From an uncultured Candidatus Saccharibacteria bacterium (lineage in GTDB: Bacteria > Patescibacteriota > Doudnabacteria > UBA920): DNA of 64,000 nt. Both the position numbers and the translations under genes were made by a program. Of this stretch, positions 22,786 through 61,899 are shown one piece after another. The stretch lies in assembly GCA_964384035.1 (NCBI GenBank), contig CAYLIB010000001.1, positions 135,636 to 199,635 of the forward strand, in the 5' to 3' direction. Below the pieces are notes generated by a model that saw nothing but the letters and a program-made list of their open reading frames with translations, made no database searches and was not told the DNA's origin. Each line of letters begins with the position of its first letter. The first letter of the stretch is position 1.

Positions 22786-23658
22786 ATGGAACCCCAAAAC
22801 TCACAAATAAATAACCAGGATCAGCCCATTCCACACTCAGGTCCAAAACAAGAAGAGGGGCAAAATAGAACAAAAAAAGGTGTAGCTTCTAAAGCAAACT
22901 ACACGCAAGTTCTTATGCAAGCAGGTTTAAATGGTTCTCAGGCCCTTATTTACGAAACCTTACTAAAAACTGGCCCCTTAAAAGCCAGTAGTTTAGCCAC
23001 AAGAACCCCATTCAAACGTCAACTTACTTATAAGCTCTTAGAAGAACTAGTAGAAATAGGTCTGGTAGTTAAGCAGGAGCAAAAAGGGAAAGTAGCCATT
23101 TTCGAACCAGCGCATCCCCTAAAGTTAAAAGACTTTATAGAAAAACAACAGGAAAAAGCCAAAGCTGCCGAATTAGCCGTAAGTGGCATGATGGAAAAAC
23201 TAACCCTAGACTACAATTCAGTATTTGGTCGTCCCGGTGTTAAGTTCTACGAAGGAAAAGAGGGGATTATAAAAATCTACGAAACCTTATTAGAAAACGG
23301 AAAAAATATAGACAGTATAGAAGACAAAGGCGAAATGGCTAGTTTTATACCAGAATATTCCAGGCAATACCCAAAGCTAAGAGTAAAAAGAAATATTTTC
23401 AATAGAGTTATCGCTCCGTCAGATAATCCTATAAACGAATCCAGCAAAGTGCTCATGAGAGAAACCAGATCCATCCCCACAGAATCATTCCCGTTTCGCA
23501 TGGACATAAAAATTGCTGGTCAGCTAGTTAGTCTAATCACATTTCATAAAGATAACCCCGTAGGTATTCTTATAGACAACCCAGAAATAGCCGACAACTT
23601 TAAAATCCTATTCGATTTAATTTGGAGATCATCAGAAAAAAATAAACCCGCTTTATAA
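22786..23658 (+). CDS. TrmB-family winged-HTH transcriptional regulator paralogue (copy 1)
   Basis: N-terminal TrmB-like HTH: GLNGSQALIYETLLKTGPLKASSLATRTPFKRQLTYKLLEELVEIGLV. C-terminal domain is closest to copy 52486..53250 (shared PFRMDIKI...ILIDN.EIADN..ILF). Confidence 0.7.
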   Translation: MEPQNSQINNQDQPIPHSGPKQEEGQNRTKKGVASKANYTQVLMQAGLNGSQALIYETLLKTGPLKASSLATRTPFKRQLTYKLLEELVEIGLVVKQEQKGKVAIFEPAHPLKLKDFIEKQQEKAKAAELAVSGMMEKLTLDYNSVFGRPGVKFYEGKEGIIKIYETLLENGKNIDSIEDKGEMASFIPEYSRQYPKLRVKRNIFNRVIAPSDNPINESSKVLMRETRSIPTESFPFRMDIKIAGQLVSLITFHKDNPVGILIDNPEIADNFKILFDLIWRSSEKNKPAL

Positions 23659-30137: not shown

Positions 30138-30145
30138 ATAAAAAA

Positions 30146-30176
30146 CAGACCCAAGAGACTTCTCTTGGGTCTTTTA
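30146..30176 (+). terminator. Rho-independent terminator after polA
   Basis: Stem agacccaagaga / tctcttgggtct followed by T-run. Confidence 0.55.
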
Positions 30177-30243
30177 AATAGCCAAACATCTTAGTGTGGT
30201 TGATAGTAAGCAGATATATATCAAACACCCAAACTCAAGCTAA

Positions 30244-30275
30244 CTATTCTCCATCGCGGCCGCGAGGGAGAATAG
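30244..30275. promoter_or_regulatory. Near-perfect 32-bp palindrome with a NotI (gcggccgc) core upstream of 30316
   Basis: ctattctccatcgcggccgcgagggagaatag; 30 of 32 positions are self-complementary. Candidate operator or hairpin. Confidence 0.35.
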
Positions 30276-30315
30276 TATGTTAAGCTAAACCTATAAAAAA
30301 TTTAAATAAAAATAT

Positions 30316-31356: not shown

Positions 31357-31531
31357 AAGAACCTCCTATTAAGTTTTAGTTTATGCGAACGGGTTGTTTG
31401 TTTTTGAAATATAATTATGTCATAATTAGCTAGAATTATTAACAATATTAGATAGTAATTTTAAATAAAAGCTCAAATATAGGATATTTTTAATACTAAT
31501 TAGCATAAATTTGTCAGAAATAATAACAAAA

Positions 31532-32275
31532 ATGATAGATTCTAAATCACTTCTCGTTGCAGGATTAGATGAAAAATCCGCACAAATATATCTCGCTAGT
31601 CTAAGTTCTGGTGTGTCTTCAGTTCAACAGCTTGCTGAAAAAACAGGTTTAAAAAGACCCACAGTCTATATGTATATTCAGCAAATGCTAAAAGAAGGCT
31701 TTCTAGAAAAAGTCCCCATTGGTAAGAAGGACTACTACCAAGCAATAGACCCAGAAGTTGTAAAACAGAAAGTAGACGAGGCTCACGCCCAAATGCAAAC
31801 CATATTCCCAGAGCTATTACAGATGCAAAATAAAACTGCGGGCAAACCCGGGGTTAAAGTACTCGTTGGTAAAAAGGGAATGGAGCAAATATACAAAGAA
31901 ATAGCCCAAGCAGATTCTATTCGTTTCTGGACCGACCTCTCCCAGTTTGAAAGCACCTTCAAAAATAGTTTCAACTACCTAAGCGAAACCATAAAAACTA
32001 AACAGATACGAACCAAAGAAATAATCGCCGACAACCCCAAAAGCAAAGCCAGCTCAAAACGTTACGCAGCAAACGCCGGTAAATTTTACTCTTCCCGCAT
32101 TGCCACAAAAGAAGGTATAACCAACGACAGTGCAATATATGGAAACGTCGTAGCCCTTTTCCGCATCCACGATTTCAACCTCTTCGTAGTCAGAATAGAA
32201 GACCTCACCATAGCTACCAGTATGAAAGCCCTCTTCGAAATGGCCTGGCAATCCGCCACGCCCTTCATTGGTTAA
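31532..32275 (+). CDS. TrmB-family winged-HTH transcriptional regulator paralogue (copy 2)
   Basis: N-terminus LLVAGLDEKSAQIYLASLSSGVSSVQQLAEKTGLKRPTVYMYIQQMLKEGFL. ATG at 31532 preferred over the track's TTG at 31511. C-terminus ALFEMAWQSA resembles other copies. Confidence 0.6.
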   Translation: MIDSKSLLVAGLDEKSAQIYLASLSSGVSSVQQLAEKTGLKRPTVYMYIQQMLKEGFLEKVPIGKKDYYQAIDPEVVKQKVDEAHAQMQTIFPELLQMQNKTAGKPGVKVLVGKKGMEQIYKEIAQADSIRFWTDLSQFESTFKNSFNYLSETIKTKQIRTKEIIADNPKSKASSKRYAANAGKFYSSRIATKEGITNDSAIYGNVVALFRIHDFNLFVVRIEDLTIATSMKALFEMAWQSATPFIG

Positions 32276-32297
32276 TAAAAAAAGCGAGTCTGTAAAC

Positions 32298-34833: not shown

Positions 34834-35163
34834 ATGAAGTTTTTGTGCGCGGTGATTTTATTTTTCACGTTATCAGCAAGCACTGTTGCGATTGCACAGC
34901 AAAAGCCTTGTAGTAAGAGTGCAAGCATCGGTATCAGATACGAGGAAGAAAAGTATATCACAGACACATGGATATCTGGTAATGGCAGGCAAGCCCTCGC
35001 CGTTTATAAAGAATTCGGAAGAGAAAAAACATCTTTAGTCTTGCATGTTTCGCCAGAGATGGCAGCAACTCTAAAAATCGGAGATAAGGTCCTAGCTGAA
35101 GGTAACATAATTTGCACCCAACAGGGTGCTCACAGCTTCCGTATTAGTTCAGTAACGCGATAA
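34834..35163 (+). CDS. Small secreted protein
   Basis: Signal peptide MKFLCAVILFFTLSASTVAIAQQ. Terminator hairpin cgcgat / atcgcg plus T6 at about 35156-35182. Confidence 0.4.
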   Translation: MKFLCAVILFFTLSASTVAIAQQKPCSKSASIGIRYEEEKYITDTWISGNGRQALAVYKEFGREKTSLVLHVSPEMAATLKIGDKVLAEGNIICTQQGAHSFRISSVTR

Positions 35164-35180
35164 AATTTATCGCGATTTTT

Positions 35181-35318
35181 TTAATTTATAAACAACCGCG
35201 CAAGCCTTATCTCATCATAACTAAAACTCTCGTCTAGTAGTTGTTTAACCGGATCGAGGACAGACAGAACTGAGGGGAAAAGCTGGATGTTACGGACAAG
35301 GCTATCATCCGCATGCAT
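35181..35318 (-). pseudogene. RecQ C-terminal (HRDC end) gene fragment; displaced copy of the recQ 3' end
   Basis: 45-aa remnant MHADDSLVRNIQLFPSVLSVLDPVKQLLDESFSYDEIRLARLFIN. Its last 22 aa match the RecQ C-terminus (APVKQLLDESFSYDEIRLARLFIK). DNA is 67 of 69 identical to 38035-38103. Confidence 0.5.
35185..35253. repeat. Left copy of a 69-bp direct repeat of the recQ 3' end
   Basis: tttataaacaaccgcgcaagccttatctcatcataactaaaactctcgtctagtagttgtttaaccgga. Differs at 2 positions from the right copy at 38035-38103. Similarity stops abruptly on both sides. Confidence 0.7.
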
Positions 35319-35469
35319 GAGCGTCTGCTTAGAAATCAGCCTGAAGAAGTCGAAGGTTTCACTAAAATTATCCGCGTCACTCCCAGTTGAGTGGCGTTTT
35401 TTTACCTAACAAGTAGTTCTGGGAGAGAATGGGGTTGCAGAATGTCCACTCAAAGCACAAGAGCAAGTA

Positions 35470-36018
35470 GTGTTCAATGTGAGGAGCGACTGGAATAACC
35501 ATCAGGTGAGTAAAGTCGTGAGGGAAGCTATCTGGTACGCTAATGATTTTTTTAGCGAAATGCGCAAGCCGTACCAATTTATGTATTCCGATGAAAGTCC
35601 AGACATAGTGGTTCGGGAATGGCAAATCAACCTGAAGGTCTGTGGGGAGGCGATTATTAGGTTGGATACCCAAGGTGGGTATTACGGCGTGGTAAAAATA
35701 CACTCGGTAATGGCGAATGCTCAATTTGATACTCTGGTAAGAGTTATTCTGCACGAGTTGCTGCACTCGGTTGGTGCAAAGCATTCAAGTGTTGCCGAAG
35801 CCAACGACTTGATGAGTAAAAATTTAGTGCCGCTTCCAGGTTATGGCCAATACTGGTGCCAAACCAGTCACGATTGGGCCATAAAGTCACAAACTCTGGG
35901 AGAAATTACAAACTTTATCGAGCGACTAAAAACTTATCAAGGCAACCGTGGTAGGATATGGAGAAGTCCAGCGTCCGACCCGAAAGTCAAAAAGAGTAAG
36001 AAAAAGGGCTATTACTAA
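35470..36018 (+). CDS. Metzincin-type zinc metallopeptidase-like protein; tail-to-tail partner of TrmB copy 3
   Basis: HEXXHXXGXXH signature HELLHSVGAKH. 182 aa. Terminator hairpin ctgcc / ggcag plus T-run at about 36020-36046. Confidence 0.55.
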   Translation: MFNVRSDWNNHQVSKVVREAIWYANDFFSEMRKPYQFMYSDESPDIVVREWQINLKVCGEAIIRLDTQGGYYGVVKIHSVMANAQFDTLVRVILHELLHSVGAKHSSVAEANDLMSKNLVPLPGYGQYWCQTSHDWAIKSQTLGEITNFIERLKTYQGNRGRIWRSPASDPKVKKSKKKGYY

Positions 36019-36200
36019 TACTGCCACCCAAGGCAGTTTTTATTTTACTTCTACTTGCTCGTAGTCCGCATAGAAGACGCTGCTATTGCAAGTACTATGG
36101 GTGCACTGTTCGATGTGGCCTGGAAACAATCCACTCCATTCATAGGCTAAGCACTGTAAATAAATAAACCACCACCAGCAATAAGTTGGCGGTAGTTTAT

Positions 36201-36929
36201 TTATGCGAGCATTTTCCACATAAAGTTGAATATATTCTGCATAAAGCTCGATATTTCTTTAGAAAATATTTCTACCGCAACATGCTCTTTTTTATAGCTG
36301 ATAAAAATTACTCTATCTGGCAGTATATAGCACCCAGCTGTCCACGAAAGAGGGGAGAACGCAGGTGGAAGCAGTTTAACTTCGCTCAGGGTTTTCTCTT
36401 TATCTGACTTTCGCGCCTCCGCAATCATAGAAGTCTCCGTAACCAAGCGCGTATGTATTCCTCTCTCGGCACGTCTCTTTTTAAATCCTTTTAAGAACCC
36501 TGAGTTCATGGAAAGCCAATCTTGCTCACTGGTAATAATGTCGTAACTTTTAAGTCCGCGTATTTCTAAAATAGAATCATACAATTTAAGTAATTCCTTT
36601 TCAGAACTATAAACCTTAATAACTGGGGTCTTACCCGAGGTTCGGTGTAGATCTATGAGATCCGGTAGTAGTTCTTTAAGTTTTTCTTCTTTCTGTTTAA
36701 GCTCAATAAGTAAATTCTTCGGACTGTGCGGGAAAAAACGAAGAACTTTTTTTGATTCAGCTTTATAAACCATACCCCGTTTCTCCAATTCCGAAAGTAC
36801 GTCGTAAATCGTTGTTCTGTCTAACTTTGAGCTAACTGCTATTTCCTTTACAGTCGCCTCGCCCAAAGTAAGTAGGGTCTTATAAACATTTTCCTCTTTT
36901 AAAGAAAGTCCCAAAAATGATAAATCCAT
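36201..36929 (-). CDS. TrmB-family winged-HTH transcriptional regulator paralogue (copy 3)
   Basis: Classic TrmB HTH LGLSLKEENVYKTLLTLGEATVKEIAVSSKLDRTTIYDVLSELEKRGMV. ATG at 36929 preferred; the track begins at an upstream TTG (36965). Confidence 0.7.
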   Translation of the reverse strand: MDLSFLGLSLKEENVYKTLLTLGEATVKEIAVSSKLDRTTIYDVLSELEKRGMVYKAESKKVLRFFPHSPKNLLIELKQKEEKLKELLPDLIDLHRTSGKTPVIKVYSSEKELLKLYDSILEIRGLKSYDIITSEQDWLSMNSGFLKGFKKRRAERGIHTRLVTETSMIAEARKSDKEKTLSEVKLLPPAFSPLSWTAGCYILPDRVIFISYKKEHVAVEIFSKEISSFMQNIFNFMWKMLA

Positions 36930-37111
36930 AATTTTGTGGATAATTTTCGACAAATAATAATACAAAATAATAGCCTAAATAAGGCTATTTTTAATTAATT
37001 ATAGCAATATTTATTAAATTTGTCAATATTTCCCCTCAACTCATGTATAGTTACCCATCAAGTTGATAATTCGATCAGCTTGAAATTCCACCCACTTCCT
37101 TAGGAGGTTCC

Positions 37112-37540
37112 ATGAAGTACGTTCTGTTGTCTCTCGTTTTGTTCGCCGCAGTTCTGGGTTTCGGCTGTTTCGGTAAAAGCAGTCCACCGGTCGGAGCCAA
37201 AGCCACGCCCGAAGCGCGTGGTATCGCCGACGACTCGACTCAGATCGAGGAGGTGTCGGACTGCAGTTGTGGTGCAGTTCCGAACCGAACTCCATCCCGA
37301 TTCGAGCTTCGCATGGAAGATGATCGTTACTTCCTGCGAATCGTCCCAGCTCAAGGTCAGCAGGATATTGAATATTTAATTTCCACAAAGCACCAGGGCG
37401 GACCGAAGGCGAGATCGGAAAAGGGAGAACTATGGGACATCAATCCCAAAGATCTCGCGAACCACTTCTCAAGTTGTTGGCAGGTGCTCGCAAAAAAGGT
37501 CGATGAAAAGACCCTAAAGCGAGTCTACTCCCAGCAGTAA
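37112..37540 (+). CDS. Lipoprotein (discrete high-GC insert); head-to-head cargo of TrmB copy 3
   Basis: Lipoprotein signal with lipobox LGFGC. About 60% GC against 35-40% flanks. RBS ggagg. Own terminator hairpin ggggcga / tcgcccc at about 37550-37580. Confidence 0.55.
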   Translation: MKYVLLSLVLFAAVLGFGCFGKSSPPVGAKATPEARGIADDSTQIEEVSDCSCGAVPNRTPSRFELRMEDDRYFLRIVPAQGQQDIEYLISTKHQGGPKARSEKGELWDINPKDLANHFSSCWQVLAKKVDEKTLKRVYSQQ

Positions 37541-37603
37541 CTGTGACTCTGGGGCGATTAGCTAACTGCGTCGCCCCACTTTCTTTAAAAGGAGAAAAGA
37601 AAA

Positions 37604-37984
37604 ATGTTCCTATATTCTTCATTAGTCATATCACTGTTGTTAAATTTATCTGCCATCTTTCTTTACCTCCGTCATCTCGGAATAAAGGAGATGGGCAAAG
37701 AAGCCGAGCGACTAGAAGAGAAAATAACTACAGCGTTCACAATGGCGAACGGCATCCTAATTTGCCTCAGTCAACTCCCAGAGGAGTATGGCCTCAAGGC
37801 AGAAGCCGAAGGTTTCCTATTAGAAATAGATGATCTCATTCGTTCAAACGTGGTTAGTTTGGACGGGGGAGCAACCCCAAGGTTCAAGATTCTCGAAAAT
37901 CTCGATGAGCTAACTAAAAAAATGCTTTGTACAGCTAGTGGTAGAAAATACGAAGCGAAGGGGTGGAAAATTCCAGAGGCGTAA
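37604..37984 (+). CDS. Hypothetical protein with an N-terminal transmembrane segment
   Basis: RBS aaaggagaaaag. 126 aa. Followed by the bidirectional terminator shared with recQ. Confidence 0.4.
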   Translation: MFLYSSLVISLLLNLSAIFLYLRHLGIKEMGKEAERLEEKITTAFTMANGILICLSQLPEEYGLKAEAEGFLLEIDDLIRSNVVSLDGGATPRFKILENLDELTKKMLCTASGRKYEAKGWKIPEA

Positions 37985-38003
37985 AAAAGGGTTAATTTTT
38001 TTA

Positions 38004-38037
38004 AAGCGGAATCATCAGAATTCCGCTCTTTTATTTT
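38004..38037. terminator. Bidirectional terminator between 37604..37984 and recQ
   Basis: Stem agcggaat / attccgct with T-runs on both sides. Confidence 0.5.
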
Positions 38038-40181
38038 ATAAACAACCGCGCAAGCCTTATTTCGTCATAACTAAAACTCTCGTCTAGTAGTTGTTTAACC
38101 GGAGCAAGAAATTCGGTGCCCGCCTCCAAATAAGCATCTTGTATTTTTAGAAGTCTCTGTGCGTCTGGTTTAAGGTATTCAATATCTAAACCAGGCTCCT
38201 GCTCCAGTAGTACTTCTATATGCGCAATTACCGTACCTTCCTTTATTCCTCTCTCATTCGCAATTTCGGCAAGACTTTTCCTCTCCAAAATGAACTGCTT
38301 GGTTATTAAATGGGTCGGCGTAGCTTTCTCTCGTATTACCCTTTGTTGTGGAGCTGGTTCTTTCTTAGTTGTTCTCTCCGAAAACCCCAAAGGTTCTGCG
38401 AAATTTCTAATTACTTCCACAAACTTTTCACCATACTGCAAAAGCTTTTGTTCACCCACGCCGTTAATATTCGCAAAACTTTCAAGACTCTGCGGTAAAC
38501 TGTTCGTCATGTCAATTAAGCTCACATTAGAAAACACAACATACGGCGGCACACCTTGTTCGTCCGCCAATCGCTTGCGAAGCTCAGATAATACTTGGTA
38601 CAGTTCTGGAAATTCAGTACTGCTGGCAACAGTTTTCTTTTCTTTCTTCTCTCTTTTTTCTTTCACTTCACTACTATTCACTTTCGGGATATGTAACACC
38701 TTCCTCTCCCTAAGCCACCGCATTCCCATAGGTGTAACCCGTAGAATAGGGTACTGTCCTGCTGTTTGTTCGAGTAAGTCCTTAGCTAAAAGCGATCCAA
38801 ATACTTCTTCCAGCTGGCTCTTAGAATAATCTTTTACAATCCCAAACACCGACAAATTATTATGCCCAAACTGCAGAACTTTTTCGTTTTCCTTACCCAG
38901 TAATACAGAAATAACATGCCCTTTCCCAAACCGTTGCTCGGTTTTTATAACCGCCGAAAGTATTTTCTGCGCAACTTCGGTTGCATCGAACTCCTCCGGT
39001 GGGTTAACGCACATATCACACATATCACACGGGGTAGGGAAGTCCTCACCAAAATAATTCAGTAAAAATTTTCGTCTACACGAAAGACTCTGTGCATAGT
39101 CCCGCACTTCATATAGTTTTTGCCATGCTCTTTGCTGTTCTTCGCTGTCGGTTATCATCTGAATCAAGCGACCCTGCTGTACTAAATCCCCAGCAGAATA
39201 AAAAAGTACACACTCACTAGGTAATCCGTCTCTTCCCGCACGACCAGTTTCCTGGTAATACCCCTCAACCGACTTTGGTAAACCCAAATGCACCACAAGC
39301 CTAACGTCTGGTTTGTCTATTCCCATACCAAACGCCACCGTCGCTACTATTATATCTATATCGCTTCGTATAAATTTCTCCTGTGTCCTGCTCCTATCCT
39401 CGCTACTCATACCTGCATGATAAGGCAGCGCCCTAAAACCGGAAGACTTAAGCACACTTGCCACTCGCTCGGTTTCATTCCTAGAAAAACAGTAAATAAT
39501 TACACTCTCATCCTTAAATTTATTCAGCAACTCCAGTAGTTTCGCTAAAGACCCCTGTTTAGGTACTACAGAATAAAATAAATTCGTTCTATTAAATCCA
39601 CTTAAAAAAGTTTTGTGGTCTGTTAACCCTAACTGCGAAATAATATCTGTCTGAACCTGCCCAGTCGCAGTAGCAGTTAGCGCAACTATCGGCACATCTG
39701 GAAAATACTGTCGTAAGTTTCTTAGGTTTCTATATTCCGGCCTAAAATCATGCCCCCATTCCGAAATACAATGCGCCTCATCTATTGCTATTAACCCCAC
39801 TGGAATATTTTCCAAAAATTCTCTGAACCCCGGAGTAGAAAATCGCTCCGGCGCCAAATACAAAAGTTTAACTTGTCCTCCGAGCACGGCTTGTTCCACC
39901 TCCATTCGCTCGTTCACCGAAAGGCTGCTATTTAAAAACGCAGCCGAAACACCATTATTCCTAAGTCCATCCACCTGGTCTTTCATTAAAGCTATTAAAG
40001 GCGAAACCACCAAAGTAACTCCGGGACGAAGCAAAGCCGGCAGCTGAAAACAAAGCGACTTCCCCCCGCCAGTCGGCATAATAACCAAAGAATCCCTCCC
40101 CGAAGCCACATGCTCTATAATCTCCCTTTGCCCCGGCCTAAAACTATCTAACCCAAAATATTTTTTAAGAGTATCTATCAT
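38031..40181 (-). CDS. recQ: ATP-dependent DNA helicase RecQ
   Basis: RecQ motifs FRPGQREII...MPTGGGKSLCFQLPAL, DEAHCISEWGHDFRPEY, the zinc-binding cluster CRRKFLL...CDMCDMC, and C-terminal RQC/HRDC regions. 716 aa. Confidence 0.9.
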   Translation of the reverse strand: MIDTLKKYFGLDSFRPGQREIIEHVASGRDSLVIMPTGGGKSLCFQLPALLRPGVTLVVSPLIALMKDQVDGLRNNGVSAAFLNSSLSVNERMEVEQAVLGGQVKLLYLAPERFSTPGFREFLENIPVGLIAIDEAHCISEWGHDFRPEYRNLRNLRQYFPDVPIVALTATATGQVQTDIISQLGLTDHKTFLSGFNRTNLFYSVVPKQGSLAKLLELLNKFKDESVIIYCFSRNETERVASVLKSSGFRALPYHAGMSSEDRSRTQEKFIRSDIDIIVATVAFGMGIDKPDVRLVVHLGLPKSVEGYYQETGRAGRDGLPSECVLFYSAGDLVQQGRLIQMITDSEEQQRAWQKLYEVRDYAQSLSCRRKFLLNYFGEDFPTPCDMCDMCVNPPEEFDATEVAQKILSAVIKTEQRFGKGHVISVLLGKENEKVLQFGHNNLSVFGIVKDYSKSQLEEVFGSLLAKDLLEQTAGQYPILRVTPMGMRWLRERKVLHIPKVNSSEVKEKREKKEKKTVASSTEFPELYQVLSELRKRLADEQGVPPYVVFSNVSLIDMTNSLPQSLESFANINGVGEQKLLQYGEKFVEVIRNFAEPLGFSERTTKKEPAPQQRVIREKATPTHLITKQFILERKSLAEIANERGIKEGTVIAHIEVLLEQEPGLDIEYLKPDAQRLLKIQDAYLEAGTEFLAPVKQLLDESFSYDEIRLARLFIK
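38035..38103. repeat. Right copy of the 69-bp direct repeat (the native recQ 3' end)
   Basis: tttataaacaaccgcgcaagccttatttcgtcataactaaaactctcgtctagtagttgtttaaccgga; 67 of 69 identical to 35185-35253. Confidence 0.7.
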
Positions 40182-40217: not shown

Positions 40218-42227
40218 ATGACCCATTCACCCGAACACCAAACAAATTTAGAATTTGAATTAAGCAACGAGGAGTTAGATAGTTTGCTCGAGGAAAATAC
40301 CCCAAAAAGCAGATCAAAACTTCACAAATTTTTCGAGCACATACAAATAGAAAAAGAGAAATTTGAGTCAGAGCACATTGGAGATCCAGACCTAGAAGCG
40401 AATCCTGCAATATTAAGAGCTCTTGTCTGGGCTCAAAAAGCAAAGGACAAAACCGATAACTATTTACTACAATCCCACCTCGAAGATTTCCTAAATAGTC
40501 GAATAGATTTCGCCACAGACGAGGCTGAGGCAGGGGACGGATCCCCAGGAGCCGGTGCTTACAAGAACCGGTTCATGTTTAAAAATCAATTACGGTCTGC
40601 TCAGAACCGTTTAAAGTTCGGTCTAGTCTCAGAAACTAATCCAGCTCGTGAAGCTTTTGTTCCGCTCTCAAAGAGTCAAAACCTTTTTGCGCTTTATAGG
40701 AATGGGCAGTTAGCAGAAATTTACGAACAACCAGAAAGTTTGCAGGATTTCGAGTCTCTAGAAAATGAATTAGTAGCCGGGAATCCAAAAGAAGGTGAAG
40801 AAATCTATTCATCTGTAGTGAATATGTTACGTGATCTTCGAGAAAACCCACGAACCAATAACTTAACCACGCAAGTTTTACTAAAAGACACCATAGCAAA
40901 GTTCGATGAAGAGCACCCCAACTTCTATTTCGATTTTAAAGATTTGGAAAAGTGGGGAGAAGACCCAAACAAGCTTCATCCGGTTGTAATTGCTTGGCTT
41001 GTAATGCACAACGAGGACATGCCCCGTCTGAAAGAGGTCTTAAATCGTATTCCAAAGCCAAGCAGTGTAAGTAAGGAGAGGTTAGAATCACTAGCCTTCC
41101 CTTACCAGGACCCTTCAGGATCAACTTTAGCTGAATACGAATATCTAGTTAGTCCTGCCATGCGATACAGAATAGAAAAAGATTTCGGATTAGAAATAAG
41201 TAATCTGCCAATTCATGCCCAGGCTCAGTTTCTTAAGTACCTAAACTCAAGCAACGTAGAAAGTTTTGAAAAAGTTAAGTCAGTTATCGGTTCGCTAAAA
41301 GACGAAGGTCTACGTAGTGGTGCAGCATCTGCTTTCTTCTCGTGTTTAGAAAATCCTGAATATGCACAAGGGGTATTAAATCTAGTTGAAGATCTAAAAG
41401 ATAAACCCGAAGATCTTGAATCAGTTATTAGTTCATACAACCAAATAGTTGAAAGTTCGTTCAAAGCCGAACACTATCTGGGTCGTATAAATGACGCATC
41501 AGATCTAGAAGAAAATGACATTGCACAGGTGGCAAAGCGCATGCAGCATAAAGCCAACGAAATAGTTAAGCAGTACCAAAAGGGCGCTTCTAAAGAAACC
41601 TTAGGACTCGAGAAAAAACGCCTCTTAGAAGCAGAAATAGAGGTAATAGGTTTAGCCTCAGCCTATAAAAATGTCTCCAAAGAACACCCCGCAAAACTAG
41701 AATCGTTAACAGCCAGTGAATTAACTGAGAAACTTAAAAAAGAAATAGTAGAAACCTATCGTCGTGCCAGAAACCTAGACAGAGACTATCAAGGTCAGCA
41801 AGAAGTTGTAGAAGCACAAGTAAAAGATTTAGAGCATCACATGGAACCAAACTCCGGTGCGGTGTTCAAGTTAACCAGAGTCGGCGGAAAATTAATGGGT
41901 TTTATGTATCTACAACCAGAAAACAAAGACACTCTGTGGGTGGGCGGTCTAACCGTGAGGCCCGAGGCCCAGAGCGATAACGTGGTAGATGTTTTTCAGC
42001 AAGACATGAGAGAAGAAATTTACCCAAGATTCAATGTGGTAATAGAGGTCTTAGCCGAAAAAGAAAGCCTGCAAAGAGCCTATGGGTTCGAAGGGTTTGC
42101 CTATAAGAAAGGAGAGGACGGAAAAGATAAGGTAATAAACGAATTCGCCGGTGTACAGTTTGTGGTCATGGAGAGACCTAAAGGTGTGAAGCAAGCTATG
42201 CGAAAATCTAAAACAGCTACTGCTTAG
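40218..42227 (+). CDS. Large partner protein (669 aa), helical with a GNAT-like C-terminal domain; paralogue of 59578..60744 and partly of 49449..52463
   Basis: Shared module with the 1004-aa protein: LHPVV and AEYEYL...P.H.Q..L......E.F..V...I.......A..FF.C. GNAT-like C-terminus GGKLMGFMYLQ...GGLTVRPEAQ...V, similar to the 406-aa protein (IVAGVYYIDE...GGFNVRKSYQ). Confidence 0.6.
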   Translation: MTHSPEHQTNLEFELSNEELDSLLEENTPKSRSKLHKFFEHIQIEKEKFESEHIGDPDLEANPAILRALVWAQKAKDKTDNYLLQSHLEDFLNSRIDFATDEAEAGDGSPGAGAYKNRFMFKNQLRSAQNRLKFGLVSETNPAREAFVPLSKSQNLFALYRNGQLAEIYEQPESLQDFESLENELVAGNPKEGEEIYSSVVNMLRDLRENPRTNNLTTQVLLKDTIAKFDEEHPNFYFDFKDLEKWGEDPNKLHPVVIAWLVMHNEDMPRLKEVLNRIPKPSSVSKERLESLAFPYQDPSGSTLAEYEYLVSPAMRYRIEKDFGLEISNLPIHAQAQFLKYLNSSNVESFEKVKSVIGSLKDEGLRSGAASAFFSCLENPEYAQGVLNLVEDLKDKPEDLESVISSYNQIVESSFKAEHYLGRINDASDLEENDIAQVAKRMQHKANEIVKQYQKGASKETLGLEKKRLLEAEIEVIGLASAYKNVSKEHPAKLESLTASELTEKLKKEIVETYRRARNLDRDYQGQQEVVEAQVKDLEHHMEPNSGAVFKLTRVGGKLMGFMYLQPENKDTLWVGGLTVRPEAQSDNVVDVFQQDMREEIYPRFNVVIEVLAEKESLQRAYGFEGFAYKKGEDGKDKVINEFAGVQFVVMERPKGVKQAMRKSKTATA

Positions 42228-42243
42228 TTAGTAGCTGTTTTAA
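42214..42243. terminator. Hairpin with T-run at the convergent junction of 40218 and 42224
   Basis: Stem cagctac / gtagctg with a 10-nt loop, then ttttaattt. The two genes' stop codons overlap within it. Confidence 0.4.
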
Positions 42244-43015
42244 TTTCCTTTGCGTGTATCCAGTTGTGCTCAAAAAGTAGTTTTTGCAGTTTATATATGT
42301 GTGAGTCTCTAATTAATACCGAGACTATTTTGTTAGGGTTTAGAGTTATGTAGCATATTGTATCGTTGTAAATTCTAAGCATCGCTGGGAAGTCTTCCGG
42401 AAGGTCTAAAAATCTAACGTGAGTAAATTTACTAGCAAGCTCAGTCGCGACTTTTTGCTCGAAAGGTGTATTGCGCACAAGTAGTCTATGGTTAACTTGT
42501 AGTCGGTGCCTAGCCTTAACGTAATCGTCATTTAATTCCTTAGCCTGTGTTAACACTACTTCGCTATCTATATAAGAACATACTTCTTTAGCGTGAAGCG
42601 AATCTTTCACTGCTTTAACCGCCCCTTCTAACCCTTCAAAAAACTGTACCGTCGGTCTATTCGCAATCAAGTTAAAGTCAGAAGTAACGTTTTGCCAAAT
42701 ACCTTCCACCGCCAAAGCGGCATTTTTTATTTGCGCCTCTTTCGAGCTAATAATCTTTTTCAAGTTATCCGGATGAAGAGGGGAGAACTGCGTTACCTTA
42801 CCCACTACCTCTTTTTTTTCTATTAACTCCAACTCTTCCAATTCCTCCAGGACTTTATAAAGCAGCCCCTTTTTTAAAGGTGTCTTAGTAAACAGCTTAG
42901 TCGCCGTCATTTCCCCATGCTTCAGTAGCACCTCATAAACAACCGCCTGGTTCTCTGTTAGCCCAGCCAACTCAAAAGTATTTGTATAAGAAAATGAAGA
43001 TTTACTTTCGTTCAT
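42224..43015 (-). CDS. TrmB-family winged-HTH transcriptional regulator paralogue (copy 4)
   Basis: N-terminus ELAGLTENQAVVYEVLLKHGEMTATKLFTKTPLKKGLLYKVLEELEELELI. Closest paralogue is 60754..61539. ATG at 43015; the track's TTG start is at 43033. Confidence 0.7.
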   Translation of the reverse strand: MNESKSSFSYTNTFELAGLTENQAVVYEVLLKHGEMTATKLFTKTPLKKGLLYKVLEELEELELIEKKEVVGKVTQFSPLHPDNLKKIISSKEAQIKNAALAVEGIWQNVTSDFNLIANRPTVQFFEGLEGAVKAVKDSLHAKEVCSYIDSEVVLTQAKELNDDYVKARHRLQVNHRLLVRNTPFEQKVATELASKFTHVRFLDLPEDFPAMLRIYNDTICYITLNPNKIVSVLIRDSHIYKLQKLLFEHNWIHAKEIKTATN

Positions 43016-43142
43016 ACCTATATAATAGCACAAAACAAAAATATTTTCAATACTTTTTGAAAATAATCACTAATAAAATATATAAATTTAACCCTATTTT
43101 CATTAATCAATTGAAAATAAGCAATATTTTATTCAATAATTA

Positions 43143-43171
43143 TTGACATTTATATAATTTTATGGCATACT
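43143..43171 (+). promoter_or_regulatory. Conserved cassette promoter (copy C)
   Basis: TTGACA, 17 nt, tgg-CATACT (extended -10-like). About 50 bp around it are near-identical to 61759-61812. Confidence 0.55.
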
Positions 43172-43259
43172 ACAACTTAAACCCAAACAAACAGTAACCT
43201 CCTTCACCGGAGGTTTTCGCAAAACCCGTTTTCACCCGTTTTTCGGGCAAGGAGGAAAG

Positions 43260-47483: not shown

Positions 47484-47512
47484 AAAACAGCCTCCCCGCG
47501 GAGGCTGTTTTA
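47484..47512. terminator. Bidirectional terminator between 45303 and 47510
   Basis: Stem cagcctcccc / ggggaggctg (47488-47507) with flanking A/T runs. Confidence 0.55.
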
Positions 47513-48274
47513 GTTTGTGCTTTTCCATACTAGTTCGAACACCGAAAGTAATGTTTGGTAAATTTCTTTGTTCTCTATAATAACCGCCACATGGTTATTT
47601 TCTTTAAACGTAACAAACGAAACCTTTCCAGAATAAATGTTTACCTCGCTCGCAAAAGGGAATAGACCATACTCCACCCATTTATTCTCTGTAAACTTAT
47701 TAGCCACATAGTTTTTTGTATACGCAACGGCATCCGGATGGTTAAGTACCAATGCCCGCTCGTGAATTCCTAGTTTCAGTCGCTTTGGACCATAATATTT
47801 TTCATTCCATTCGCGCAAGTATTTTAAATAGGTGCTCAAATCGGAAAACGTTGCCAACTTTCCATCTGGGTTGTGTGTTAGCGTATCTTCCAAAACCAAT
47901 TTAACTCCAGCAAGTCCTTCATAAAATCTAACTCCTGGTTTGGCTGCTAAAGTTTGGTACTGGTTACGTAAAGCGGGGAGGTGGGCAAGCAGTTTACTTT
48001 CAGCTTCCGCAAGAGAGTTTTTTTGTTTTGCCACAAATACTTCCAAGCTCTGTGGATCCTTAGCCGCAAACACCGCCCGGTTGTTCGTACCCGCGTACTC
48101 TTCTATAAGCCCCTTACTCTTAAGCGAGTCCAAAGCATAATAGCAACTACCCCGAACAATACTCGTAGCCGAAACAATAGTTTTCATCTGCGAAGGACCA
48201 ATAGAAAGTAGGGTAGTAAGAATCTTACTCTCCCGTTCATTCAGCCCCACAGATTGTAATAACTGCTCGTTCAT
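47510..48274 (-). CDS. TrmB-family winged-HTH transcriptional regulator paralogue (copy 5)
   Basis: N-terminus GLNERESKILTTLLSIGPSQMKTIVSATSIVRGSCYYALDSLKSKGLI. C-terminus LLSVFELVWKS. Confidence 0.65.
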   Translation of the reverse strand: MNEQLLQSVGLNERESKILTTLLSIGPSQMKTIVSATSIVRGSCYYALDSLKSKGLIEEYAGTNNRAVFAAKDPQSLEVFVAKQKNSLAEAESKLLAHLPALRNQYQTLAAKPGVRFYEGLAGVKLVLEDTLTHNPDGKLATFSDLSTYLKYLREWNEKYYGPKRLKLGIHERALVLNHPDAVAYTKNYVANKFTENKWVEYGLFPFASEVNIYSGKVSFVTFKENNHVAVIIENKEIYQTLLSVFELVWKSTN

Positions 48275-52463: not shown

Positions 52464-52487
52464 AACTCCCCTTAGGGGAGTTTTTTT
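52462..52487. terminator. Bidirectional terminator between 49449 and 52486
   Basis: Stem ctcccc / ggggag with loop tta, then T7. Confidence 0.55.
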
Positions 52488-53250
52488 AAACAATCATTTT
52501 CCAAAACGTTTCAAATAGTATCCGGTAGTTGTCTGCAATTTCTTGGTTATCTATTAGAATTGCTACCGGATGTTCTTTCTGAAAACTAGTTTGTAGTACG
52601 TACCGGTCAAAAATTTTAATATCCATCCGAAACGGAAATTTCTCTAGTGGTAGTGTCTTAACTTCAAGCAGTAGCTTGGGGTCTGTTTTGTTTACCCTGT
52701 TTACAGCAGGGGAGATAGTGCGCGATTTAATTCCGCGTTTCACCCGCTTTTTTATATAGATATCAACATAGTCTCTAAAGTAAGCATCCATATCGCCTTT
52801 TTCTTCAAAACTCACAACCGTCTTAGCGTTTTCGAGTAAGAACTCATACGCCTGAATTATTCCTTCCTTCCCTTCAAAAAACCTAACCCCTGGACGCCCC
52901 GTGGCTAAATTAAAGTCGATAGTCATTTTCTCAAGAGAGCCAGAAACCGCTTGCTCTGCTACCTTTGCAAGTTCTGCTTTTTTCTCCGCCCATTCCTTCA
53001 GTTTAATTGGATGCGAAGCTTCAAACACCGCCACTTTACCAGGTTCATCTTTTTTAATAACCAGGCCTATCTCTAGTAATCGCTCCAGAATTTTATACAC
53101 CAGTGTTCTTTCTACTGGAATTTTTACACTAATTTTAGAAGCCGGCATCTGTCCATGTATAAGCAGGGCTTCATACACCAAAGCCTGTTCAACGCTAAGT
53201 CCAGAAAGGAGGAGGGTATTATGATGTGAAAAATTTTGAGGAATGTTCAT
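52486..53250 (-). CDS. TrmB-family winged-HTH transcriptional regulator paralogue (copy 6)
   Basis: N-terminus MNIP...LSGLSVEQALVYEALLIHGQMPASKISVKIPVERTLVYKILERLLEIGLV. Closest to copy 1 at 22786. Confidence 0.7.
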   Translation of the reverse strand: MNIPQNFSHHNTLLLSGLSVEQALVYEALLIHGQMPASKISVKIPVERTLVYKILERLLEIGLVIKKDEPGKVAVFEASHPIKLKEWAEKKAELAKVAEQAVSGSLEKMTIDFNLATGRPGVRFFEGKEGIIQAYEFLLENAKTVVSFEEKGDMDAYFRDYVDIYIKKRVKRGIKSRTISPAVNRVNKTDPKLLLEVKTLPLEKFPFRMDIKIFDRYVLQTSFQKEHPVAILIDNQEIADNYRILFETFWKMIV

Positions 53251-60744: not shown

Positions 60745-60756
60745 CGCGGGGTTTTA
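60733..60756. terminator. Bidirectional terminator between 59578 and 60754
   Basis: Stem gccccgc / gcggggt with loop ctaa (containing the stop codon), then tttt. Confidence 0.5.
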
Positions 60757-61539
60757 TAATGCCCGCGCCTTCTCCCATGTAAACTCGTACAACTGTCTAT
60801 GCAATTCAGCTATATGAGCGTCTTCAATAATAACTCCAATATATTTGTCCTTCTCAAACGTCATATAGCTAATCTTATTGTCGTAAATCTGAAGCATGCT
60901 CTTAAACTGCATGGGGGAGTGGACACGGTCTACTAAGCGAATGTCTGTAATATCACGGTGGTAGTCTGCTAAATACGCACGGTTCTCCAAAGAATCATTC
61001 ACCAAATTTCGTTTCTTTATTTTAAGTCGTCTACGGACCTTAACGTATTCATCGTTAAGGTCTTTTAAATGCGCCTGAATAACCGACATATCCAAATAGG
61101 CAAGTATCTCACCTTTGGCAGTTAAGTTATCGAATGCCACCGTACGAATTCCTTCCAGTCCTTCAAAAAATTGCACCGAAGGTTTCCCAACCGACAAGTT
61201 GTACTCAGAAGAAAGTGTCCCCATAACAGCAGCCAGCGACTCTTTAGCGGTTTGTGCTTCTTTTTCGCGTCGTGCAATAAGCTCCTCTAAGTGTCTCGGG
61301 TGATTCGCCTCAAACAAAGCCACCTTCCCCGGTTCATCTTTCTTTACAACAAGCTCAAGTTCTAATAATTGATCCAGAATCCGATATGCGATAACCCGTT
61401 CCATCTGTACTGCACTAGCCAATTTACTAGCAGTACTCGCACCACTCTTAAGAAGCGATTCATACACCAAAGCCTGCTGGTCAGTTAAGCCGGCCAACGT
61501 TAAATGTTCAAAGTATGTATGTGAGTGGGGGATGTTCAT
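60754..61539 (-). CDS. TrmB-family winged-HTH transcriptional regulator paralogue (copy 7)
   Basis: MNIPHSHTYFEHLTLAGLTDQQALVYESLLKSGASTASKLA... Close paralogue of copy 4. Shares the MNIP start with copy 6; the track's upstream ATG at 61572 is the alternative. Confidence 0.7.
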   Translation of the reverse strand: MNIPHSHTYFEHLTLAGLTDQQALVYESLLKSGASTASKLASAVQMERVIAYRILDQLLELELVVKKDEPGKVALFEANHPRHLEELIARREKEAQTAKESLAAVMGTLSSEYNLSVGKPSVQFFEGLEGIRTVAFDNLTAKGEILAYLDMSVIQAHLKDLNDEYVKVRRRLKIKKRNLVNDSLENRAYLADYHRDITDIRLVDRVHSPMQFKSMLQIYDNKISYMTFEKDKYIGVIIEDAHIAELHRQLYEFTWEKARAL

Positions 61540-61766
61540 ATGTTGCGTTAGGGTATGTAAGAAATCACACATACCATAGATTCCTGTTACCCGAATAAAT
61601 GAAAACCATTCATTCCGAGCCTAAGAAACTCTTTTCTATAAACTATTATATCACAACAAGATAATTTTGTAAAACAAAAAGTTACAAAAACATATAAATA
61701 AAATAAGCAAAATGTGCTTATTATATTAAATAATATTACAAATACAAATATTTTGTATCAATATTA

Positions 61767-61795
61767 TTGACATTTATATAAATTTATGGCATACT
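61767..61795 (+). promoter_or_regulatory. Conserved cassette promoter (copy D)
   Basis: TTGACA, 17 nt, tgg-CATACT. Identical to 43143-43171 apart from one spacer base. Confidence 0.55.
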
Positions 61796-61899
61796 ATCAC
61801 TTAAACCAAAACGCAAAAAAACCGAACTCCAAAGCAAGCGCTAAGGTATTCATATCTAAAAACTACAACGCGGCCTCAGCCGCAAAATAAGGAGAGAAA

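Follow-up and report, generated by a model that had tools for sequence, protein, structure and literature searches.

Integration of a circular DNA molecule by a single crossover of the Campbell type duplicates the region of homology as direct repeats on both sides of the insert, and recombination between these repeats can reverse the event. Two kinds of natural islands without a recombinase of their own are relevant here. The microcin H47 island of Escherichia coli, 13 kb in size, contains no integrase, is flanked by imperfect direct repeats and gives rise to hybrid sites through crossovers in four segments of identity (PMC3191183), and its excision does not depend on RecA or on any of the 16 site-specific recombinases of strain K-12 (PMC5426353). 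The cis-mobilizable elements (CIMEs) known from Streptococcus families of ICEs (integrative and conjugative elements) retain intact att sites and have no genes for integration or transfer (PMC6323972). Here we describe an insert of 2,775 bp with four genes, hereafter the recQ islet, which lies within the last 72 bases of recQ in a 64-kb stretch of contig CAYLIB010000001.1 from an uncultured bacterium; this whole stretch of 64,000 nucleotides is called the window and all positions refer to it unless another contig is named. The H47 island and the CIMEs are the closest analogues of the recQ islet, which we regard as a real but fairly ordinary recombinase-less islet.

The recQ islet resembles the H47 island in being small, in having extensive imperfect direct repeats and no integrase or excisionase, and in the occurrence of empty and hybrid sites in other strains. 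Crossovers fall in differing segments in both, four in H47 and at least two intervals in the recQ islet. The H47 island differs by its length, its microcin system, its position within larger pathogenicity islands and the experimental demonstration of RecA-independent excision and of integration, whereas the recQ islet measures 2.8 kb, uses the 3′ end of a housekeeping gene as its repeat, resides in an uncultivated and probably candidate phyla radiation (CPR)-like host, and is presumed to be mobile only from variants seen among populations. With CIMEs it has in common att-like direct repeats which take in the 3′ end of a protein-coding target gene, a content restricted to cargo and the lack of integration and transfer genes. 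However, CIMEs are defined by a cognate integrase of an ICE or an integrative and mobilizable element (IME) acting on the same att site, and for the recQ islet no such partner or integrase was found, about 49 ORFs of the window having been searched, and the crossover is not fixed. Elements with their own recombinase (prophages, ICEs, IMEs) share with it the target-derived repeats and an unoccupied site, but the islet has no internal recombinase and, as far as evidence at the level of unitigs goes, no fixed position of strand exchange. Its geometry is that of a Campbell-type integrant, in which the composition of the hybrid copies is set by the crossover point; such integrants are usually made in the laboratory with homologies of hundreds of bp, whereas the recQ islet is natural and its 75-bp homology (with exact stretches of 39 and 26 bp) ends at a stop codon.

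The target gene, recQ (38031–40181, minus strand), is intact and codes for a protein of 716 aa with all six RecQ domains (Pfam DEAD, Helicase_C, RecQ_Zn_bind, RQC, HRDC and HTH_40). Using blastn and a repeat search on the 64-kb window, we identified a direct repeat of its end at 35179–35253 and 38029–38103, in which 72 of 75 positions are identical (E 3.9e-28). The original prediction had placed this repeat at 35185–35253 and 38035–38103 with 67 identities in 69 positions, which is exact, although the true extent is slightly longer. The sudden loss of similarity at both ends, also claimed there, was confirmed by ungapped comparison outwards from the edges. The right (proximal) copy comprises the last 24 codons and the stop codon of the functional recQ plus 2 nt beyond, and the left (distal) copy is a duplicated recQ 3′ end adjoining the native downstream flank. 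The insert between them (35254–38028) has a GC content of 42.7%, compared to 43.0% in the window. At two positions, 33 and 36 of the repeat, the left copy reads C (35211) and A (35214) and the right copy T (38061) and G (38064), and both changes in the right copy are synonymous in recQ (GAC/GAT for Asp and GAA/GAG for Glu). When the window was compared with itself, the sole match besides this repeat was a 66-bp promoter segment, described below with the TrmB genes.

The empty site was found in a sister lineage represented by L087, an 11.8-kb contig of a metagenome-assembled genome (MAG; NCBI GCA_964434195.1, CAYSUI010000028.1), which we reached through P0121, the second full-length member of the 90% RecQ cluster. 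Here recQ is followed by a converging 110-aa gene and then by Rieske and AAA_33 genes, and the insert is absent. In blastn, L087 1340–3495 corresponds to window 40183–38029 with 93.5% identity and L087 3420–6404 to window 35253–32272 with 89% identity, and a single 76-bp segment of L087 (3420–3495) aligns to both repeat copies of the window. The window thus contains, relative to L087, an insert of 2,775 bp and a target duplication of 75 bp. The three-way alignment showed L087 running seamlessly across the site and the window with sharp junctions. The counterpart of the 110-aa gene in the window is a gene of 109 aa converging on recQ (34834–35163, plus strand) with a terminator hairpin at 35156–35174; in the lineage with the empty site this gene directly follows recQ as its native neighbour downstream, and the left repeat copy is contiguous with this flank in L087 as well. 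The original prediction had proposed that the element integrated into the recQ 3′ end with RecQ left intact, and had expected recQ to lead directly to the terminator of this gene in strains without the insert. Both ideas gained support from L087, whose recQ runs straight into the terminator of the 109/110-aa gene. One difference of a single base in a T-run (L087 3489–3507) moves the RecQ stop codon, so that the protein ends with ...LFIKIKKSR in L087 and with ...LFIK in the window.

At the two positions that distinguish the repeat copies, L087 carries C and A, as does the left copy, and not the T and G of the right copy. Bases T and G next to the insert, combined with a left copy that resembles the empty allele, form the hybrid pattern expected when one crossover joins a native site to an incoming copy. 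The left copy is the native end of recQ, displaced or duplicated and now fused to insert DNA. It closes a chimeric open reading frame (ORF) of 45 aa on the minus strand (35181–35318), which joins the 24 duplicated recQ codons to 21 codons of insert DNA. The RecQ-like end of this ORF had been recognised correctly, as 23 of its last 24 residues equal the C-terminus of RecQ and only the last one differs (N for K). Its upstream part had been attributed to a diverged RecQ allele, and this did not hold: in a comparison with a profile of 117 RecQ C-termini, the 50 upstream residues scored −1.3 bits, the same as other frames, and we therefore rejected a RecQ pseudogene from a diverged allele. The full left remnant aligned to the RecQ C-terminus profile only over residues 48–73, and Pfam HTH_40 covered only residues 45–70 of the 74 in this frame.

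The occupied form was recovered in three contigs of the Joint Genome Institute (JGI; L081, L082 and L088) from three samples, which are 99.98–100% identical to the window. A more distant occupied locus is represented by L104, a Logan contig of 1,393 bp from SRR17068072, which matches window 37079–38477 at 90.6%. It spans the same right junction into recQ and carries orthologues of the lipoprotein and membrane-protein genes of the islet together with the junction of terminator and repeat. In the 3′ 450 nt of recQ, the three lineages (window, L087 and L104) are nearly equidistant (93.1%, 92.7% and 93.5%), with 17, 13 and 15 lineage-unique sites. As L104 shares the junction and the lineages are equidistant, the insert is either old or has spread. 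The direction of events between the window and L087 is a matter of interpretation: either L087 never had the islet, or it lost it precisely.

The host lineage is isolated and probably CPR-like, since the relatives of its RecQ are distant. The nearest one among species-representative genomes, from a Candidatus Peribacteria MAG, has 60% identity, and in a collection of 5.8 billion proteins the closest RecQ outside the cluster of the query is 55% identical. Scans of genome and metagenome contigs for close relatives yielded only distant RecQ loci (≤60%; 34–44%) without repeats downstream, and the informative relatives came from the 90% protein clusters.

Evidence for exchange between the two repeat copies comes from public metagenomes. 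Logan contigs are built at k=31 and break inside the stretch of 39 bp common to both copies; contigs L089 and L090 correspond to window 35224–38094 (2,871 bp), and L099 and L102 stop at 35244. We considered the 2,871-bp L089 and L090 as a possible circular form but rejected it, as both coincide with the k=31 unitig that the common 39-bp stretch delimits. In the window, SRR12487045 and the JGI sequences, the copy linked to the flank carries C and A and the copy linked to the insert carries T and G. The opposite arrangement was present in DRR235453: there the flank-linked copy (L102) carries T and G, and the one linked to the insert carries C and A (L090; L091 from DRR235452 has them too). The outermost variant of the repeat, at its position 6, keeps to its flank in either arrangement, with A at the left and T at the right. 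These opposite arrangements indicate that the inner part of the repeat has been exchanged reciprocally between the populations' two copies. The crossover has to be placed in repeat positions 7–32 for DRR235453 and, when the window is compared with the native allele, in positions 37–75. Crossovers in two different intervals argue for homology-dependent recombination and against a fixed cleavage site. Moreover, L102 and L103 (SRR14932689) have six flank variants in common and yet differ at these two positions of the repeat, which makes the exchange a recent one, uncoupled from the flank haplotype. At repeat position 72 both copies of the window have C, where L104 and L087 have T, and copies within the genome (72/75) are more alike than orthologous copies across lineages (69/75). 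This points to conversion (concerted evolution) or to re-integration.

We consider it slightly better than an even chance that the recQ islet is a recombinase-less islet which was inserted by homologous crossover at the end of recQ and whose repeat copies still recombine by means of host functions. It would have entered by one reciprocal (Campbell-type) crossover, in which a sequence of ~75 bp on the incoming DNA that matches the recQ 3′ end recombined with its chromosomal counterpart. Such a crossover would duplicate the 75-bp segment in a way that RecQ keeps its full C-terminus and a stub of 24 codons stays at the far end. Later crossovers at differing positions of the repeat would loop the islet out as a circle of 2,850 bp and leave an empty site of the L087 type. 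A crossover in positions 7–32 would yield a circle and an empty site with the sequences seen in DRR235453, and a second one in positions 37–75 would re-integrate the circle with swapped repeats. Conversion between the copies would keep the repeats alike, and the enzymes would be supplied by the host. The variable position of the crossover points to homology-dependent recombination over a dedicated integrase with a fixed site; the circular intermediate and the identity of the recombination machinery are what we infer from this pattern. In a circular form, the strong terminator-like hairpin followed by seven T at the left end of the insert (35374–35397, plus strand), which has no obvious gene upstream, would fall in series after the terminator hairpin at its right end (38005–38027, plus strand). 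The latter abuts the right repeat, now lies also just 3′ of recQ, and is the terminator whose junction is kept in L104.

Several points weigh against a homologous origin and continuing host-driven exchange. The empty site is known from one MAG contig only. The swap is seen in k=31 unitigs, in which an integrated form with swapped repeats and a mixture of empty site and circle look alike for DRR235453, and a mixture of strains with two independent conversions is another conceivable source of that pattern. The identical stretches, 39 bp and, in the second crossover interval, 26 bp, are short for recombination of the RecA type. We found no donor or free form of the islet, and two of the cargo genes are orphans. 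The scan for recombinases covered the 64-kb window, which is part of a contig of at least 201 kb. Finally, the homology spans 72 nt inside recQ and reaches only 2–6 nt past the stop codon. Such an end just past the stop codon is typical of an evolved attP by which the target gene is restored, and the original insertion may therefore be the work of a trans-acting integrase.

This last point leads to the rival that survives best, which we nevertheless consider rather unlikely, namely that the repeats are the attL and attR of a site-specific tyrosine or serine integrase encoded elsewhere in the genome or on a helper element. The islet would then be CIME-like, with a fixed insertion at the recQ 3′ end and with variants swapped later by ordinary recombination; in another version, a larger ancestor inserted and then lost its integrase. 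The homology to the last 72 nt and the restored target are indeed what is seen in elements targeting the 3′ ends of tRNA or protein genes, the same junction occurs in two lineages about 7–10% apart, and CIMEs, which keep their att sites intact but carry no genes for integration or transfer, are recognised as a class (PMC6323972). On the other hand, Pfam searches of the four cargo genes and about 45 other ORFs (~49 window ORFs) found no integrase, resolvase or transposase. PADLOC and PHROGs recovered no recombinase in the cargo and nothing relevant, in agreement with the earlier claim that none is encoded inside the element. Contexts of homologues of the islet's TrmB protein (TrmB3) and viral contigs contained no related element with an integrase either. 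The only inverted repeat within the repeat site is a pair of 8 bp with 43 nt between its arms, which does not resemble a core site with its spacer of 6–8 bp, and the populations need crossovers in two different intervals. Consequently, the attL/attR signature named in the original prediction stood as far as target-derived repeats and an empty site are concerned, whereas a site for a site-specific recombinase was not established, the variants being reciprocally swapped elsewhere. A site-specific att site for the islet is thus unproven and somewhat disfavoured.

There is a smaller chance, which we would call low, that the islet is a one-off scar. In that case illegitimate or replication-based repair inserted foreign or rearranged DNA just 3′ of the recQ stop codon and duplicated 75 bp, the insert was never mobile, and L087 branched off earlier or lost it by deletion between the repeats. 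The host-like composition of the insert, its two lineage-specific orphan genes, its age and the purifying selection on its genes would all fit such a history, as would the further indels of the cassette type that distinguish L087 from the window at terminator T-runs within the same 12-kb region. However, the differences of the right copy would have to arise after the duplication and then be swapped reciprocally, by excision and re-integration or by a double crossover. The duplication is also too long for the footprints of such events; to our knowledge, target duplications of 75 bp far exceed any left by transposition or end joining. Insertion of a transposon or insertion sequence was ruled out by the length of the duplication (75 bp versus 2–15 bp), the lack of terminal inverted repeats at 35254/38028 and the absence of a Pfam transposase domain. 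A tRNA target was not indicated either, as no tRNA genes were found in the 64-kb window. Rfam returned no match in the islet region, including the left end of the insert, where the predicted fold of 35254–35410 is no better than that of shuffled sequences (z 0.42), and a structured RNA at this end was rejected.

Because the DRR235453 unitigs fit an empty site plus circle as well as swapped repeats, a more daring reading can be drawn from them, which we hold to be improbable. According to it, the 2.85-kb unit is a minimal recombinase-free shuttle cassette that occurs in nature both integrated and as a free circle and relies on host recombination only, over a 75-bp imitation of the end of a gene. 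TrmB units may likewise be a recurrent class of such cassettes in CPR-like genomes, with the repeat-flanked unit of L097 described below as a second case. The cassette's TrmBL2-like protein could then be involved in maintenance or in the choice of the site.

An assembly artefact, in which a mis-join across the 75-bp repeat produces either the integrated form or the empty site, is hardly credible: the shared 39 bp does have two inputs and two outputs at k=31, where Logan contigs break, but this exact stretch is spanned by ordinary reads and larger k-mers, the window and all three JGI assemblies show the integrated form, L104 crosses the right junction, and L087 spans the empty site with flanks of 89–93% identity on both sides.

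The islet carries four genes. The first (35470–36018, plus strand) codes for an orphan protein of 182 aa with a metzincin motif (HELLHSVGAKH, which follows the pattern HEXXHXXGXXH). Its match to Pfam Peptidase_M57 is marginal (E 7.7e-5; 22.9 bits, the cut-off being 21) and covers only 41 residues, and a search of 5.8 billion proteins brought up nothing outside its own cluster. The second gene, TrmB3 (36201–36929, minus strand), codes for 242 aa counted from the ATG and belongs to PF01978 (E 2.6e-17, 62.9 bits against a cut-off of 25.6). It is preceded, in the divergent intergenic region, by a sigma-70-like consensus promoter on the minus strand (36998–37026), TTGACA-17-TATAAT with a TG extension, matching 12 of 12 positions. 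The third gene (37112–37540, plus strand) encodes a putative secreted lipoprotein of 142 aa with a signal peptide and Cys, and the fourth (37604–37984, plus strand) a small membrane protein of 126 aa with an N-terminal hydrophobic helix. The four-gene cargo had been described in these terms from the beginning, and the ORFs with their motif, TrmB domain, signal peptide with Cys and hydrophobic helix were all found; only the GC content of the lipoprotein gene, given as 60%, had to be corrected to 52%.

The lipoprotein is, like the first protein, an orphan, with one weak match only (38%, E 1.5e-4). The two genes that could be compared with orthologues in L104 are under purifying selection, with ratios of nonsynonymous to synonymous divergence (dN/dS) of 0.18 for the lipoprotein gene and 0.21 for the membrane-protein gene. 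Synonymous divergence (dS) between the window and L104 is 0.087 in the lipoprotein gene (37112–37540 and L104 35–463), 0.54 in the membrane-protein gene and 0.25 in recQ. The low value of the lipoprotein gene, which also forms the GC-rich part of the insert, may reflect either its recent exchange or an unusual constraint.

We also examined candidate origins and functions of this cargo. A phage or plasmid origin was rejected, as none of the four proteins had relatives in IMG/VR; PHROGs gave nothing useful in this respect. As for defence systems, PADLOC matched only the winged helix of TrmB3, and this candidate was dropped as well. TrmB3 itself was considered as a hidden enzyme or recombinase. 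Its AlphaFold model (predicted local distance difference test, pLDDT, 83.6) gave the best Foldseek matches to the DNA-binding proteins TrmBL2 (5bqt/5bpd, E 1e-12, full-length) and TrmB (3qph, E 2e-9), and its C-terminal domain has a phospholipase D (PLD)-like fold without the HxK motif, so the idea was rejected. On the basis of this model TrmB3 is a TrmBL2-like DNA-binding protein and not an enzyme. It has in common with TrmBL2 and TrmB (5bqt, 5bpd, 3qph) the N-terminal winged helix of PF01978, a long helix and the PLD-like C-terminal domain lacking the HKD motif. It differs from them by an identity of only ~20%, by its bacterial host (TrmBL2 is an archaeal chromatin protein) and by being one of seven divergent paralogues in 64 kb.

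These seven TrmB-family paralogues are located at 22786–23658, 31511–32275, 36201–36965, 42224–43033, 47510–48274, 52486–53250 and 60754–61572. They are 21–51% identical to each other, and most of them adjoin a divergent small gene of no known family. TrmB3 has at most 28.6% identity to the other six, and a recent local duplication of another TrmB unit was rejected on this ground. Relatives of 55–76% identity occur elsewhere, all in unrelated contexts. Homologues of 63–76% identity had no other cargo gene, recQ or integrase nearby, and the existence of the conserved four-gene unit elsewhere was rejected. The 66-bp segment mentioned above (43123–43188 and 61747–61812, 89.6% identical) lies upstream of two TrmB paralogues that are only 37.5% identical as proteins. 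It holds a near-consensus promoter, TTGACA-17-TGgCATACT, directed at the divergent neighbour gene. In another organism, at a locus that carries a TrmB3 homologue of 63% identity (L097 1278–2871), we noticed a unit of 1.47 kb composed of a 107-aa gene and a different TrmB paralogue (248 aa). It is flanked by intergenic direct repeats at 1278–1317/2752–2791 (83%) and 1445–1481/2835–2871 (84%), and is possibly a second repeat-flanked TrmB unit.

Further away from the islet, L087 and the window differ in two other places. At L087 6405–7145, corresponding to about 32272–32282 of the window, L087 has an extra one-gene cassette of 741 bp, which encodes a 212-aa protein with its own promoter and terminator and is placed between two terminator T-runs (TTTTTTTATTAA / TTTTTTATTGG). 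The second difference is a replacement indel (L087 9119–10326 versus window 30143–30309), where L087 codes for a DUF2207_C protein of 285 aa and a membrane protein of 88 aa, and in the window 166 bp of unrelated intergenic sequence take their place.

The recQ islet reveals no new mechanism, and it stands out by its target at the recQ 3′ end, by being very small, by the lineage of its host and by recombination products that can be seen in public metagenome unitigs. The mobile DNA of uncultivated CPR-like bacteria is poorly charted, and most island finders need an integrase. The islet, gene-sized and lacking a recombinase of its own, is acquired or lost with precision where a housekeeping gene ends; public metagenome unitigs keep the reciprocal recombination products of its flanking repeats. 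We regard it as a natural counterpart, from a very distant lineage, of the H47 island of E. coli, and as a site at which integrase-free island movement can be tested by polymerase chain reaction. For its host, the islet brings an extra TrmBL2-like regulator together with putative secreted and membrane proteins, which fits the turnover of surface proteins and regulators in these genomes.

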